The notes beneath the pieces were generated by a model that did no database searches, was not told the origin of the DNA, and was given only the letters and a program-made list of their open reading frames with translations. A DNA stretch of 29,461 nt. Origin: a virus (lineage: Duplodnaviria > Heunggongvirae > Uroviricota > Caudoviricetes). The number at the start of each line of letters is the position of its first letter. Position 1 is the stretch's first letter. Positions 11,962-28,969 of the stretch are shown here, piece by piece. Location of the stretch: the IMG/VR virus record IMGVR_UViG_2565956711_000012; one strand, 5' to 3'. Made by a program: the position numbers and the translations under genes.

Positions 11962-11989
11962 TTTTTAAACCTCATTCAGGTTGGGTTTA

Positions 11990-12010
11990 AAGGAGGGTTA
12001 ACCCCTCCTT
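11990..12010 (-). other. GC-rich stem-loop between the major capsid gene and the next gene (possible attenuator)
   Basis: AAGGAGGG-TTAAC-CCCTCCTT: 8-bp perfect stem around an HpaI-like GTTAAC centre; no strong U-tract. Confidence 0.4.
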
Positions 12011-12039
12011 AATCCGGCATTACGTGATATTTTACGTAA

Positions 12040-12941: not shown

Positions 12942-13898
12942 TTATTTCTCCTGCTTACGAACGGAAAGGAATTCTTCTTCGCTGATGCCCATATGGCGGC
13001 ACATCGCGAGGTCTTCGTCAGAAAGCGAGGCATGACCTTCGGTGCTTTCTTTTTTGGTCGTCGTGGTCTTGCTGACAATGACCGGTGCCGCTTTCACGAA
13101 TTCAGCAAACTGCTTGCGGCCTTCTTCAGAGCGGCAGGTGGCGAGATACATTTCGCGGTTGGCCGGTGCGACTTTCCCCGCCTCGATGGCGCTGTCCACC
13201 AGTGCTTCTGATTCTTTGATGGCAATATCATTGAGTTTGCTTTCAGCGCTTTCCGCACGGTTAAGTGCTAACTGGTGAGTCTCAACCGGAATGAACTTCG
13301 TCAGGTCGGGATTCTCAGCACGGTTAAGCGCCACCTGCTCGGCGGTCTTAATCTGCTGAATGGCTTTTACTGCGTCGTCTGCTGTGGCAGTGGCCGCGAG
13401 GCCAAGCACTGTCACAATCTGGACAGGTACGGTCATCGTGTTTTCCTCGGAGTTGAGTGCGGGTAAATCAAGGTTGGGTTTGTTGGTCAGCGCGGCGCTG
13501 GACAGGCGGGTAACCTGACCATCCGCTGTGAACCGAAAGGCCGGACTGTAATAGCGGTACTTCTTGCCGCGCAGCTGCGCCACGCCGTCATCAGTCCATT
13601 CAACGTGCGCCTCCACCACGCCATCACTGACGCGATAGCCGTCAATCCAGCCATAAGCCGGGGCTTCATCGCCTTTCGGGCCTTTCAGTTCGGTGGAGTG
13701 CTCGATATCAAAGGGGAGCTTTGGATAAGCCATCGAGGCACGAATGATGGCTTCAGGATTGTTGTTCACCCACGAACGCCCATCACGCCCTGTAAAGGTT
13801 CCCGCCGGTATCATCGGCAGCCATTCCGGCAATGCATCATCGGTAAGGTCAGGAAGCTGAAAGCAGAGCGCCAGCAATTCCGTATTGTTCGGGTTCAT
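12942..13898 (-). CDS. I: head maturation protease/scaffold, Mu I-like
   Basis: 318-aa ORF; N-terminal protease-like region followed by a long Ala/Glu-rich helical C-terminus (scaffold-like); precedes the capsid gene. Confidence 0.8.
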   Translation of the reverse strand: MNPNNTELLALCFQLPDLTDDALPEWLPMIPAGTFTGRDGRSWVNNNPEAIIRASMAYPKLPFDIEHSTELKGPKGDEAPAYGWIDGYRVSDGVVEAHVEWTDDGVAQLRGKKYRYYSPAFRFTADGQVTRLSSAALTNKPNLDLPALNSEENTMTVPVQIVTVLGLAATATADDAVKAIQQIKTAEQVALNRAENPDLTKFIPVETHQLALNRAESAESKLNDIAIKESEALVDSAIEAGKVAPANREMYLATCRSEEGRKQFAEFVKAAPVIVSKTTTTKKESTEGHASLSDEDLAMCRHMGISEEEFLSVRKQEK

Positions 13899-13958
13899 GG
13901 TGTTGTCCGGTCACGTTGTTTACTTCCGGACAGTGTGGGGGGAAACGGGGACTCAGGT

Positions 13959-13974
13959 GGATTAACCGGCTTCA
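13959..13974 (-). promoter_or_regulatory. 16-mer TGAAGCCGGTTAATCC (copy 2, about 60 nt upstream of the I ATG)
   Basis: Exact repeat of the 16-mer upstream of the endolysin gene; here it lacks the hairpin partner and U-tract, so the shared element is not simply a terminator. Confidence 0.45.
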
Positions 13975-14042
13975 CTGTAAACGCGGCATGAAACCGCGTT
14001 TAAAACACGTTTAAAAACGCTGTGGCGCGTTTAACGATTTTT

Positions 14043-14107: not shown

Positions 14108-14896
14108 TTATGGCGAATGACTGTCAAACGCTTCCTGTTTTCTGCGTAGCTGTTCATCCAGCTCGCGACTGCGGGAGATTCCGGGGTTGTACGCCCAGCC
14201 GGGATCAATCCCCTCCGGAATGGTCTCTTCTTCGCCAGTGCGTTTGTTAACCCACCTGACCGTGCGGACTTCAGGGGCTTCCGTGTTGATAGTGCCGTTG
14301 GCCTTCATCTGCTCATACTCATACCGGCTGATTTGCCGCGTACCGCATTTGCAGCCCCAGCCGTTCGGCCCCATGTGTGTTCGCCAGAACGGATGATCCA
14401 CCGGCAGGCAGACATCCTTCCAGCGAAGATGCTCTGCACGGTGCTCACGTGAGGGGCCGACGGTGTAGACAAGATAAGGCATTGCCCGTTGGGTCCGTTC
14501 AATACGCTGCCATTGTCCCGCCGCGCGGGCTGTCCGCATATTGGTGTCGTAGATAACGCGCATCCGGCGGTCACTGCCGAGCTGAACAGTACGGGTTTCA
14601 CCGGTCAGTGGGTCATCCATCAGTTGCTGTCCCCACCATCCACGTTTGACGAGCAGAGGTTTAAGAACTTCGCGAAACTGCTCAAAGGTCTGGCCGTTCT
14701 CCAGCGCGTCCTCCACGAGCTGGCGAACGTCCGCCAGCAAATCAAGCTGCGTCATTTTTGCCACAGTAAAGCCGATGCTGTGTTCTTCCATCCAGACATC
14801 GCGGTAATCAAATCCCGGCTTCAGCTTTTTCGCCTTCAGCCAGGCCAGTGCTTCCTGGGGAATAATGCTGTATTTATCGCTGACCGGCTTAGCCAT
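14108..14896 (-). CDS. F: head morphogenesis protein, Mu F-like
   Basis: 262-aa ORF directly after the portal gene (8-bp overlap); size and position match Mu F. Confidence 0.8.
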   Translation of the reverse strand: MAKPVSDKYSIIPQEALAWLKAKKLKPGFDYRDVWMEEHSIGFTVAKMTQLDLLADVRQLVEDALENGQTFEQFREVLKPLLVKRGWWGQQLMDDPLTGETRTVQLGSDRRMRVIYDTNMRTARAAGQWQRIERTQRAMPYLVYTVGPSREHRAEHLRWKDVCLPVDHPFWRTHMGPNGWGCKCGTRQISRYEYEQMKANGTINTEAPEVRTVRWVNKRTGEEETIPEGIDPGWAYNPGISRSRELDEQLRRKQEAFDSHSP

Positions 14897-16457
14897 CGTT
14901 TACATCTCCCAGCGACCGGGCTTTAAAACAGAGCATCGCCAGCTGCGTCGCAAACTCATCCGCATCAAGTTCTTTCTGAAGCGCCGGCAGACCAGCAAGA
15001 AAGGATTCAAAACTGTCAGAGTTATTTGCCAGCTCAAGCACCGGACTGGTGAACGCATCGCCGGTACGCTGCCAGTCTTTCATGGCGTCATCCACCATCA
15101 TATCAAGGGCGTCAGGCTGGCTGCGGTTAAGTGCAGTCTGCTCACGGTTCATGGCCGGTAGTGGGTTAGCCATTTGCGCCGTTGGCGTCAGAATTTTTGC
15201 GCCTTTCTCCGGTTCTGACAGCCCGAATTTGTCTCGGATCTCTGACATCTGAACTTCCATCCCCCGGTCAATCAGTGGCGACAGTGCATCCACCAGTACC
15301 TTAAGGTCTTCCGGTTTGCTGATGCGCAGAACGACGCGGGGGTAATGCTCCTGTGGCCCGTAATTCATATCCACATAGGGACGGACAAGGAATTCAGACA
15401 GCGTGTTGGATAATTGCCAGGCATCCCATTTGGCGATGTCCATACGCACACCATTGTGGACTTCCGCCTGAGCACGTGAACTGCCGTCATCGGTGGTCAT
15501 GGTCTGCCCCAGTACGGCCTTACTAATCTGCGCGTCACACCATTCGGCCATCTCTTTAAAGAGAGTGCCACCGCTGTTACGGCTCGCCGCTTCCTGCATC
15601 TCCAGTTTCATCGAATCGGGGATTGCGCAGCCGGCATCTGATGCCAGTGATGCAATCGCATCCAGCAATGTCTGGATTTGTTCCGGGCTGGCATTGTTGC
15701 CGTATTTACCCACCACAATCGGGATACCAAATTTTTCAGCAAACGCCCACCAGTCCCGGACGGTGTAGGACTTGAGCATATACATAACGGCCACCAGTCG
15801 CGCCAGACCGTTACGCAAGGGCAAACCGGATTTCAGGCGGGGTTTATGGACGATAAATTTCCCCGGTGACAATGCTTCACCATCAATGGGGTTCCTGTCC
15901 GTCAGTAGTCTGAAATCACGCAGGGTTTCCCGGTCAGGTTTCAGAAAGCGCGGATCAACCCATTCATAATCGCGGGGTTTCCAGAGTGTGGTGCTGGTAT
16001 TCCAGAGGATTTCGCAGACGCCAACCCCTTTACCAAGCCCGTCCAGCAGATCGAACAGCAGTTCAGGAACCTGCGGTTGCGCCATGAGATTACGGATATC
16101 ATCTGCGATTTCCACATCACGAGGGGAATCGCTCCCGGCTTCCACCGAAGGTTCAATCCCGGAAACCGTCAGCTTGCGCGTACGTAAAACGCTGGCGTAG
16201 TGGAGGTCACGCTCCTCCAGTTCTTCCGCCATGATGAAGAAATCACGCGCATGACCATCGGCTGCATTACGTAAGATCCCCGCAAGCCTGCCGGGACTCA
16301 GCGTACTGGCAACGCTGATGCCTACCGAGGGGGAACGTACACTCATTACCGCCGCTGCGGATTGCGTCTGCTTCAGCTCGTCCTTGTTCACGGTGACAAC
16401 TTCCCCCGTGGCAGGACTGAACAGCCGACGAACGGCTCCGGTTAGTTGTTTAAACAT
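14889..16457 (-). CDS. portal protein (Mu gp29-like, DUF935)
   Basis: 522-aa ORF immediately downstream of terminase large subunit (1-bp overlap). Confidence 0.85.
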   Translation of the reverse strand: MFKQLTGAVRRLFSPATGEVVTVNKDELKQTQSAAAVMSVRSPSVGISVASTLSPGRLAGILRNAADGHARDFFIMAEELEERDLHYASVLRTRKLTVSGIEPSVEAGSDSPRDVEIADDIRNLMAQPQVPELLFDLLDGLGKGVGVCEILWNTSTTLWKPRDYEWVDPRFLKPDRETLRDFRLLTDRNPIDGEALSPGKFIVHKPRLKSGLPLRNGLARLVAVMYMLKSYTVRDWWAFAEKFGIPIVVGKYGNNASPEQIQTLLDAIASLASDAGCAIPDSMKLEMQEAASRNSGGTLFKEMAEWCDAQISKAVLGQTMTTDDGSSRAQAEVHNGVRMDIAKWDAWQLSNTLSEFLVRPYVDMNYGPQEHYPRVVLRISKPEDLKVLVDALSPLIDRGMEVQMSEIRDKFGLSEPEKGAKILTPTAQMANPLPAMNREQTALNRSQPDALDMMVDDAMKDWQRTGDAFTSPVLELANNSDSFESFLAGLPALQKELDADEFATQLAMLCFKARSLGDVNDG

Positions 16458-21277: not shown

Positions 21278-21868
21278 TCAGCTCCGGGCTACCGAATAGC
21301 GGACACCGGAAATCTCACGACAGGCGTCAGCGAGGTTGTCCAGTCGGTTAAACCAGCCGTTGAGGAACTTGCCCTGTGAAGGATTTGATTTGATGATGTC
21401 GGCGTAATAGCGGGAACGACGCAGAAATAAACGGTTCAGCAGCCAGTCAGGGTCAGCACCTTCAACGGCTGCGCGGGTGTTTTTACCGGCGATACCATCA
21501 ACACTTTTGCCGGTGAAACCCGCAGCTTCCTGAAGCAACTGGACAGCCTTTTTGACGCCATGCTGGACGGCAGAGTCAAAGGCAAACAGGGCTATATCAT
21601 CCGGCCAAAACTGGCAATACGCGGGATACCAGTAGTCACGGAAGTAAATCTGTCCGGCCTGTTCAACCGTTAAATCACGAATACGCGTATCAGGCTTGCC
21701 ATCGCCATTAACGTCGGTCATGCCATCGGCAACACCGTCGCGTTTATCTGATATACCGAAGTTGGTTTCACCGCCACGGTCAGTGGGGTCATTGACATAT
21801 CCGCGTTCTGCGCTGAGCACGAAAGCAAGAGCATTGCGAAATGCGGGAGAATCGGGGGTGTTGTTCAT
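21278..21868 (-). CDS. endolysin, GH108-type N-acetylmuramidase with C-terminal peptidoglycan-binding region
   Basis: 196-aa ORF; N-terminal ERGYVNDPTDRGGETNFGIS matches the GH108 catalytic motif as I recall it; no signal peptide or SAR segment; AGGTG about 7 nt upstream of ATG. Confidence 0.75.
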   Translation of the reverse strand: MNNTPDSPAFRNALAFVLSAERGYVNDPTDRGGETNFGISDKRDGVADGMTDVNGDGKPDTRIRDLTVEQAGQIYFRDYWYPAYCQFWPDDIALFAFDSAVQHGVKKAVQLLQEAAGFTGKSVDGIAGKNTRAAVEGADPDWLLNRLFLRRSRYYADIIKSNPSQGKFLNGWFNRLDNLADACREISGVRYSVARS

Positions 21869-21919
21869 AAAACGGCACCTTTGGAAGTGGGTTAGTTTTC
21901 CCTTCCATCATGTGCCGGA

Positions 21920-21946
21920 CGAAAAAAAAGCCGGATTAACCGGCTT
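21920..21946 (-). terminator. intrinsic terminator ending the early (mor-moron) transcript
   Basis: Minus-strand RNA: AGCCGG-UUAAU-CCGGCU stem-loop followed by 8-9 U; located 30-50 nt after the moron stop. Confidence 0.65.
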
Positions 21947-21948
21947 CA
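21933..21948 (-). promoter_or_regulatory. 16-mer TGAAGCCGGTTAATCC (copy 1, about 64 nt upstream of the endolysin ATG)
   Basis: Identical 16-mer occurs again at 13959-13974, about 60 nt upstream of the I ATG; candidate late-activator site. Confidence 0.45.
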
Positions 21949-21978
21949 TTCAATGGATATAACTAGCGAATTCACTCA

Positions 21979-22488
21979 CTATGCTTTTCGTAAATCGCAG
22001 GAGTAAGTAACTGACTCCATAACTTTTCGAATAGTGGCTCGTAATTCCATTCCAGATGTAAAACCTGATGCTGAATAAGAGTCGTCTTCTCTTCTATTTG
22101 CCGTCGCTTTTGTAAAAATCTCAGCAACTTGATTGATTGAGTTTTCTGAGTCTTTCTTTCCCGTCACCCCCTCTACGAGTTTTACACATTGATTAACAGC
22201 AGCCAGTGATTCACCGTCAATATCTTTACCACTTGAAAACACCATTGCTGTAACTGCATCTGTACCTAATGCCCAAACGGTACTTACAGTGGAATCTTCA
22301 GTTGTTGCTGTATAAACCTGAACACCATCAACTATGGCTCCTTTTTTCCATTCTGTTTTTTTCAGGACACCCATTTTATCAAATTGAGAAATAAGCTTTT
22401 CATTACCTGTTAGTTCATCTTTATCGAAAAAATAGTGATACCCCCCAACTAAAATAACGGCCAGTATTAATGCATCAGTAAATTTCAT
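21979..22488 (-). CDS. moron: membrane-anchored or secreted protein of unknown function
   Basis: 169-aa ORF; N-terminal hydrophobic stretch (FTDALILAVILVGGYHYFF); clearly AT-rich compared with flanking DNA; GGAG about 7 nt upstream of ATG, inside the end of mor; followed by an intrinsic terminator. Confidence 0.6.
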   Translation of the reverse strand: MKFTDALILAVILVGGYHYFFDKDELTGNEKLISQFDKMGVLKKTEWKKGAIVDGVQVYTATTEDSTVSTVWALGTDAVTAMVFSSGKDIDGESLAAVNQCVKLVEGVTGKKDSENSINQVAEIFTKATANRREDDSYSASGFTSGMELRATIRKVMESVTYSCDLRKA

Positions 22489-22491
22489 ATG

Positions 22492-22902
22492 TTACTCCCT
22501 GCCAAATAAATCCAGTTGATGCTTGCGGTGCTCTAGTTTACGCATGCGTCTGATGGCTTTATACACCGTTTTATAGGTAACACGGTAACGCTCAACCAAC
22601 TCTGTGATGTTTCTGCCATTGAAATCACGCCAGATTTTCATATCACGAATCAATGACTCAAGAGTCTGGCCGCGTGGGAAATAAATCTGCATACCGCCAA
22701 TCTGACAGCTAATCGCGTAAACCAGCTCCAGAGAGATACGTGGGTCAACGCCATGCTTTGTCAGTTCGCCACGCAGCAGCGTATTCAGTTCTGTCAGCAG
22801 TGCAGGGAAACGCACTGTTTCCGCCGAACTGTCATCGTCCAGGTGCTCCAGAATGCTGTCATCCTGGATATCACCAAACAGATCATTCTGCTTTTCGCTC
22901 AT
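22492..22902 (-). CDS. mor: middle-operon regulator Mor (Mor/C family transcription activator)
   Basis: 136-aa ORF; DLFGD near the N-terminus, FPALLTELNTLLRGEL, IRDMKIWRDFNGRN and C-terminal HTH YKTVYKAIRRMRK match Mor as I recall it; sits right after the gemA-like gene as in Mu. Confidence 0.8.
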   Translation of the reverse strand: MSEKQNDLFGDIQDDSILEHLDDDSSAETVRFPALLTELNTLLRGELTKHGVDPRISLELVYAISCQIGGMQIYFPRGQTLESLIRDMKIWRDFNGRNITELVERYRVTYKTVYKAIRRMRKLEHRKHQLDLFGRE

Positions 22903-28738: not shown

Positions 28739-28969
28739 TCTGCGATCCTTAAATATTTACTCGTTGCGGTGAACTAAACTGCTCACCTTTACGTGTAAAA
28801 ATATAGCACACAAAAAATCGAATTCAATCTTTTTGTCAGTCTTTTGTCGGTTTAATCAAATCTAAATAAATCGAATTTAAGTCTTTGATTTTTGTGAAAG
28901 CATGTTTTTACACCATAAAAAATCGAATCGAATTTTTTGTGAGCCAGAAAAAATCGGAAACAGGAGGTA
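28739..28969. promoter_or_regulatory. early operator / divergent promoter region between ner and c (Mu O1-O3 and enhancer equivalent)
   Basis: 231-bp AT-rich non-coding region with two repeat families: AAAAATCGAAT (about 28812, 28866, 28918 and a degenerate copy near 28950) and CTTTTTGT(C/G) (about 28829, 28840, 28888, 28933). Confidence 0.6.
28798..28829 (-). promoter_or_regulatory. candidate sigma-70 early promoter (Pe) driving ner-A-B
   Basis: On the minus strand: TTGAAT, 16-nt spacer, TATATT, placed about 60 nt upstream of the ner ATG. Confidence 0.4.

Follow-up and report, generated by a model that had tools for sequence, protein, structure and literature searches.

The window, by which we mean the whole stretch of 29,461 nt analysed here, was tested over 2.1 kb and there proved 100% identical to a Mu-like prophage that E. 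coli ECONIH5 carries in narX. The narX sensor-kinase gene is split by this prophage, its flanking fragments being found at 4785-4880 and 36852-38564 of the ECONIH5 locus (L001). All phage genes except the repressor are carried on the minus strand. In the order of transcription, the early part consists of ner, transposase A, B, gam, gemA, a Mor-family gene and an unannotated ORF of 169 aa. The later part has the endolysin, packaging and portal genes, an F-like head gene, a gap of 209 nt and protease I, downstream of which come the major head protein T and then the tail and baseplate genes. No Rfam family was detected anywhere in the window. The genes bordering the regions discussed below were:

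22492-22902, minus strand: mor, the sole Mor/C-family gene, near the end of the early operon, with one ORF (21979-22488) before the terminator
21979-22488, minus strand: unannotated ORF of 169 aa, between mor and the terminator
21278-21868, minus strand: endolysin (GH108), first gene of the lysis/packaging operon, ATG at 21868
14108-14896, minus strand: F-like head gene, preceding the 209-nt gap before protease I
12942-13898, minus strand: I protease/scaffold, first gene of the head-tail operon, ATG at 13898

The ORF at 21979-22488 had no match in Pfam or PHROG. In relatives its slot was variable, being occupied by weak homologues (28-44% identity) or by other genes, or left empty, and the position looks like an accessory-gene slot that ends the early operon. 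Between the divergent repressor and ner genes (28809-28938) there were three direct repeats of ~25 nt, with the core AAAAAATCGAAT and a spacing of 52-53 nt, which are probably repressor operators. Directly 3' of the major head gene we found a 21-nt palindrome, AAGGAGGG-GTTAA-CCCTCCTT (11984-12015, minus strand), with no T-run; the Mu record has a terminator annotated at the corresponding place behind T.

Upstream of the endolysin and of protease I lies one and the same sequence of 16 nt, which occurs exactly twice in the window, both times on the minus strand, the coding strand of every late gene:

21933-21948, minus strand: 16-mer TGAAGCCGGTTAATCC, lys copy, matching the Mu middle promoter Pm from -49 to -34 at 15/16 bases; matrix score 30.3
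13959-13974, minus strand: 16-mer TGAAGCCGGTTAATCC, I copy, the same box with no hairpin partner; matrix score 33.1

The preliminary description of this DNA had reported the two identical copies in the same orientation, about 60 nt before the I start codon and about 64 nt before that of the endolysin. We located both of them, at exactly 60 and 64 nt from the respective ATG. It had further considered an exact 16-mer very unlikely by chance in 29 kb, which overstates the case where length alone is concerned. The 16-mer is the longest exact repeat within the window, and at least one exact 16-mer repeat appeared in 25% of first-order Markov shuffles of the window, so repeat length alone proves little. 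Both copies fall inside the intergenic DNA, which totals 1,279 nt, on the same strand and at a similar distance to the first gene of an operon; ~2e-4 exact direct repeats of 16 nt are expected in that amount of DNA (1279^2/2 divided by 4^16). The significance of the repeat is in its position and its conservation, not in its length.

A portal-protein scan of IMG/VR returned 75 loci. The same box was present at both places in ~60 related Mu-like prophages (portal 70-100% identical); within the related set, 61 loci had a copy upstream of lys and 67 had one upstream of I. The variants were AAGCCGGT[T/A]AATCC, AAAGCGGTTAATCC and AAGCCCGTTAATCC. In Klebsiella phage Kp4866-3, with ~70% identical DNA, the box upstream of lys was GGAAGCCGGTTAATCC, and that at 60 nt from the start of I was GGAAAGCGGTTAATCC. 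The agreement among relatives does not amount to 60 independent observations, because they are phylogenetically related. From the sites of the related loci, including the copies of the window prophage and those of Kp4866-3 and leaving Mu out, we derived a 20-nt weight matrix. Against the 33.1 and 30.3 of the two sites, the next best position in the window scored 12.4, and the 95th percentile of the shuffles was 14.4. Exactly two matches of ≥15 were found in 56 related loci, those with fewer than two being mostly incomplete contigs or distant relatives. In the Mu genome, Pm was the single strong match, with 30.3 vs 17.4 for the next. The motif scan of the prophage and of Mu-like relatives, which had been proposed as a check, recovered the box before lys and I in the relatives. 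A megablast of the I-upstream region gave no match with phage records, and species genomes searched with a peptide pattern from the Mor protein yielded no relative.

Mu Pm reads cagTAAAGCCGGTTAATCCGGCTTTTTTTacg (also given as cagTAAAGCCGGTTAATCCGGCTTTTTTT). We set its numbering by the published -57G and -54A (PMC4390567), with which a single numbering agrees, +1 being Mu 9224. The binding site of Mor is a 16-bp dyad element from -51 to -36, centred at -43.5 (PMC4287176), and the Mor footprint at Pm extends from -56 to -36 (PMC4287176, PMC4390567). The element was described as two 5-bp inverted repeats flanking a G/C-rich hexamer (PMC4390567), a description which the Mu sequence from -51 to -36, AGTAA-AGCCGG-TTAAT, fits. 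The 16-mer of the window was identical to Pm from -49 to -34 in 15/16 bases, the mismatch being at -48 (G in the window, A in Mu), and it covers 14 bp of the dyad element. In the lys copy, the core of the Mor box is extended by CC, the two bases that follow it. Adjacent downstream bases were called important (PMC2582627), and those just 3' of TCC were ACC at I vs GGC in Pm. This difference and the mismatch at -48 speak against a Mor site.

Pm is laid out as the box, 20 nt, TATCCT, 7 nt and +1. Both boxes in the window had a dyad of the Pm type, A(G/A)T(A/G)A-AGCCGG-TTAAT, with the same offset to the -10 as in Pm. The corresponding elements, of which the -10s and the starts are predictions, were:

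21935-21950, minus strand: counterpart of the Mor dyad at lys, AATGA-AGCCGG-TTAAT, from a by-eye alignment to Mu Pm
13961-13976, minus strand: counterpart of the Mor dyad at I, AGTGA-AGCCGG-TTAAT
21907-21912, minus strand: predicted -10 of the lys promoter, CATGAT, 20 nt after TCC
13932-13937, minus strand: predicted -10 of the I promoter, CACACT, 21 nt after TCC
21899, minus strand: predicted transcription start of the lys operon, from Pm geometry
13924, minus strand: predicted transcription start of the I operon, from Pm geometry

A hexamer of the form nAnnnT was found 20-21 nt downstream of the box in every unique relative sequence. A generic sigma-70 scan detected no -35/-10 pair at the lys or I site, and neither CATGAT nor CACACT was preceded by the TG of an extended -10.

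At the lys site, the box overlaps with the end of the early operon:

21922-21947, minus strand: early-operon intrinsic terminator, stem GAAGCCGG/CCGGCTTT, loop TTAAT, then a T-run

The hairpin has 8 pairs (-13.7 kcal/mol), and the 16-mer supplies its 5' arm and its loop, in agreement with the preliminary description, which had seen in the lys copy one half of an early terminator hairpin. In a test for rho-independent terminators the lys copy passed and the I copy, with no partner arm and no T-run, failed. The overlap of box and upstream terminator is also seen at Mu Pm, inside which the Mu record annotates a terminator predicted by TransTermHP; in the window it is present at the lys copy and absent at the I copy. 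In the cited papers it is not named among the things that Mor action requires. In all 33 unique sequences from relatives, the stem at lys was perfect over its 8 bp and was accompanied by a T-run, with T at 8 or more of the 9 positions between -30 and -22. At the I site, most relatives kept the hairpin through two-sided compensatory changes (-45:-31 GC/AT, -44:-32 CG/GC). The absence of a hairpin partner at I, as described earlier, is a feature of the window's lineage and one other, in which the right arm has decayed and -52..-34 is intact, and does not extend to most relatives. One Mor must read both sites in each phage, so the compensations at I point to selection on RNA pairing rather than on contacts with protein. 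RNA structure is therefore selected as well, and part of the conservation does not come from protein binding.

The repeat could then be a duplicated intrinsic-terminator or RNA-hairpin module, which acts at the RNA level only and binds no activator. The canonical terminator at the lys copy, its perfect stem and T-run in all unique relatives, and the compensated hairpins at most I sites are what such a module would leave. We regard this explanation as improbable, with a small share of the likelihood. The I copy of the window is identical over 16 nt despite having no partner arm and no T-run. Further, the loop T[T/A]AAT, the bases from -52 to -49 outside the stem and the fixed spacing to the -10 are conserved, none of which a terminator needs, and in Mu Pm this sequence is where the Mor site was mapped. 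Across the I sites, the left half of the box was conserved, and the right hairpin arm was variable or missing. The loss of the right arm with -52..-34 retained indicates that operator and terminator functions are separable. As far as can be read from the DNA, the lys site is the terminator of the early operon and a putative Mor box at once, as at Mu Pm, and the predicted operator half is the indispensable part at I. There the conserved element is the motif itself, as had been proposed.

The candidate activator is the mor product of 136 aa, WP_023277384.1, which matched Pfam Mor (3.6e-31) and the PHROG late transcriptional activator (8e-45). Its identity was 64% with Mu Mor vs 37.5% with Mu C. 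Its recognition helix, TVYKAIRRMR, is that of Mu Mor, where C has QIYQIIARQR, and hardly varied across the 46 unique Mor proteins that the relatives encode. [quoted passage not shown] The consensus operator of MuC is TTAT-N5-6-ATAA (PMC12867686). It was absent near lys and I, and a C-type late box at these sites was ruled out, there being no C homologue and no C box. Two perfect TTAT-N5-ATAA matches (2260-2272 and 15844-15856; 0.21 expected) were found inside genes, and are probably due to chance, because the prophage has no C gene.

Both termini of the window's Mor, QNDLF (N) and QLDLF (C), fit the sliding-clamp-binding motifs of MuC (PMC12867686). Mu Mor has only the N-terminal clamp-binding motif (PMC12867686), and its C-terminus reads QPSLL. 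Of the 46 unique Mor proteins from relatives, 12 had the C-terminal motif.

The F-I gap contains, directly before the I box, a block, TTAAACGCGCCACAGCGTTTTTAAACGTGTTTTAAACGCGGT (13993-14034, minus strand), that aligns with Mu DNA immediately downstream of the gyrase cut site annotated in the G-I gap of that phage. Many columns of this alignment are invariant, and the block is conserved in Kp4866-3 too. It is situated near the centre of the ~32-kb prophage, like the central gyrase site of Mu, and at the matching place Shewanella phage MuM16-2 has phased TTTAAAC repeats. The block probably corresponds to the strong gyrase site.

Nothing positive speaks for a factor other than Mor, either a host protein or another phage regulator, binding the box while Mor acts elsewhere; the I box does adjoin this block. 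The homology to the gyrase site stops upstream of the box, the box has the identity to the Mu Mor site described above, the recognition helix is identical to that of Mu Mor, and neither a C homologue nor the MuC consensus near lys and I offers another candidate. We therefore hold this explanation to be very unlikely, slightly more so than a module acting on RNA only.

A scan of 185,579 species genomes found the 16-mer in at least 120 stretches, and among these matches each stretch had a single copy and none had several. Among the 82 matches listed, the stretches come mostly from unrelated taxa; for a 16-mer in 596 Gb, by our own arithmetic, a few hundred occurrences are expected by chance. At least five of these stretches have a Mu-like mor, lys or I gene as neighbour, in the same arrangement as here, and the enterobacterial matches with Mu-like genes nearby were at the lys or I positions. 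In the 12.6 kb of L001 beyond the window, consisting of host DNA on both sides and the tail-fibre end of the prophage, there was no further copy. A REP-like dispersed repeat was ruled out by the one copy per stretch among the matches listed and by the lack of copies in the flanking host DNA. The frequency of 16-mer repeats in shuffles and the presence of the 16-mer in many unrelated genomes notwithstanding, the idea that the 16-mer recurs by chance or was copied from some generic repeated element of the host is effectively refuted by these counts and by the conserved position in ~60 relatives, and its probability is negligible.

With high confidence, we interpret the 16-mer as the core of a Mor operator of the Mu Pm type, through which Mor would directly activate late promoters. 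The preliminary description had suggested a late-activator site, for a Mor-like protein, in the places where Mu has Plys and PI; the match to Pm, the Mor orthologue and the spacing to the -10s all argue for it. Mor binding, the transcription starts and activation in the window prophage are what we infer from the sequence. A single Mor-family activator (22492-22902) would be produced near the end of the early operon and bind the box (~-52 to -34), standing in for the missing -35. Bound Mor would recruit the host sigma-70 RNA polymerase to the -10s 20-21 bp downstream (CATGAT at lys, CACACT at I), with the lysis/packaging operon starting at ~21899 and the head-tail operon at ~13924. The cascade would proceed from early to late, vs early, middle and late in Mu. 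The DNA of the lys site would at the same time encode the hairpin and T-run ending the early transcript. At the I site, in the window's lineage, the terminator arm would have decayed and the operator alone been retained.

Mu Pm is like the window sites in its 15/16 box, the overlapping hairpin and T-run, the 20 bp from TCC to the -10 and the lack of a -35. Its activator is an orthologue whose recognition helix is identical, and the gene for it likewise lies directly before the box, towards the end of the early operon. Unlike in the window, there is one box in Mu, driving the middle operon (E18-E20 and C), whereas the window has the box twice, perhaps three times, before late lysis and head-tail genes, an extra ORF of 169 aa between mor and the terminator, and an I copy without terminator. 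The C-dependent late promoters of Mu have the same positions as those predicted here (before lys, before I and within the tail/baseplate cluster) and the same layout (activator box at ~-43.5, -10 hexamer, no -35), but a different operator (TTAT-N5-6-ATAA) and a different activator. The more distant Shewanella phage MuM16-2, whose Mor is ~37% identical, has the same gene order and also shares a motif of ~18 nt, TAGAGCAACCGnCGTTA, before lys and I. It differs from the window in having the hairpin and T-run at the I copy and lacking them at the lys copy.

A weak third site was found in the tail region:

2562-2581, minus strand: third, weak site resembling a Mor box, AAAGGGAAATCGGTTAATTA, within the baseplate-V gene; GATAAA follows 21 nt downstream

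It lies 148 nt before the ATG of the gp46-like gene and scored 12.4 with the matrix set to the window composition and 11.1 with a uniform background. The homologous position scored 19.8 in Kp4866-3, at 5921-5940 of its locus (L002), and 17.7-25.0 in more distant relatives, where TATTAT or CATTAT follows 21 nt downstream, and was the only position of ≥15 in 414 kb of related tail DNA. The codons at this site retain ..CGGT.AAT despite an amino-acid change (ACG, TCG, GCG). This putative third box looks degraded in the window's lineage. The internal tail promoter PP of Mu is in gene N, while the candidate of the window is in the baseplate-V gene. In Mu, the second-best matrix match, AAGGCAAAGCCGGTAAATCC (Mu 30674-30693; 17.4), lies inside the baseplate gene gp47, at the edge of chance. 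To our knowledge, it has never been described as a Mor site.

Two further candidates were rejected. The 11-nt partial copy in the opposite orientation noted in the preliminary description does exist (AAGCCGGTTAA, plus strand, 7323-7333), but as a site it failed, with a matrix score of <8. By our own estimate ~0.08 such copies are expected by chance, and it is probably a chance occurrence; it falls where the tail-chaperone gene of Mu has its frameshift extension. The matrix match at 4122-4141, before the P homologue, scored 9.8, which is within chance, and had no -10 at the right spacing.

Both predicted promoters are followed by an inverted repeat:

21883-21906, minus strand: inverted repeat GGAAGGG...CCCACTTCC, starting at the first base after the lys -10
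13904-13932, minus strand: inverted repeat TGTCCGG...CCGGACA, starting at the end of the I -10, with the 3' arm ending 5 nt before the ATG

A hairpin in the lys start region was found in nearly all of 29 unique relatives, with differing sequences, and the arms of the hairpin in the I start region differed between lineages. Single-sequence folds gave a median z-score of -0.9 at lys, which is modest, and a clearer one of -2.6 at I; the lys hairpin sequences were too different to align, so no alignment-based consensus fold was obtained for that leader. Mu Pm has TGATGA...TCATCA at the corresponding place after its -10 (L078 619-649). If the Pm geometry holds, the 5' arm is upstream of +1, and only read-through RNA could fold the hairpin. 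In the fold-back inhibition of IS10 and IS50, read-through transcripts form a hairpin that is missing from the transcript of the element's own promoter. The window would be similar in having both arms only in transcripts coming from upstream, again if the Pm geometry holds. At lys, unlike in IS10 and IS50, the 3' arm does not reach the ribosome-binding site.

The Mor operator of Mu Pm was already known; here it appears, from its sequence context, to be used at late promoters in a prophage family without C. We tentatively suggest two linked readings, possible though on balance doubtful, namely that an ancestral two-step circuit has been kept, and that a fold-back lock is present at every Mor promoter. 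If the first is true, the three-step cascade of Mu arose from a two-step circuit like that of this prophage family. A middle operon with a duplicated activator (C) would then have entered between lys and the Pm-type box, after which the late operators would have switched to C. If the second is true, every Mor promoter, including Mu Pm, has a hairpin with its 5' arm between the -10 and the start, and the lock would prevent early read-through transcripts from being translated into lysis and head proteins.

For annotation, where a hairpin resembling a terminator precedes the lysis gene in a Mu-like prophage, it may also be a promoter element. The results provide a testable map of late control for a Mu-like prophage family in Escherichia, Klebsiella and other enterobacteria, containing one activator, two strong operators and a weak one, predicted -10s and predicted starts. 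The putative reuse of the Mu Pm operator without C offers a comparison for why Mu needs two paralogous activators, and this comparison would also bear on how the operator specificities of Mor and C diverged.
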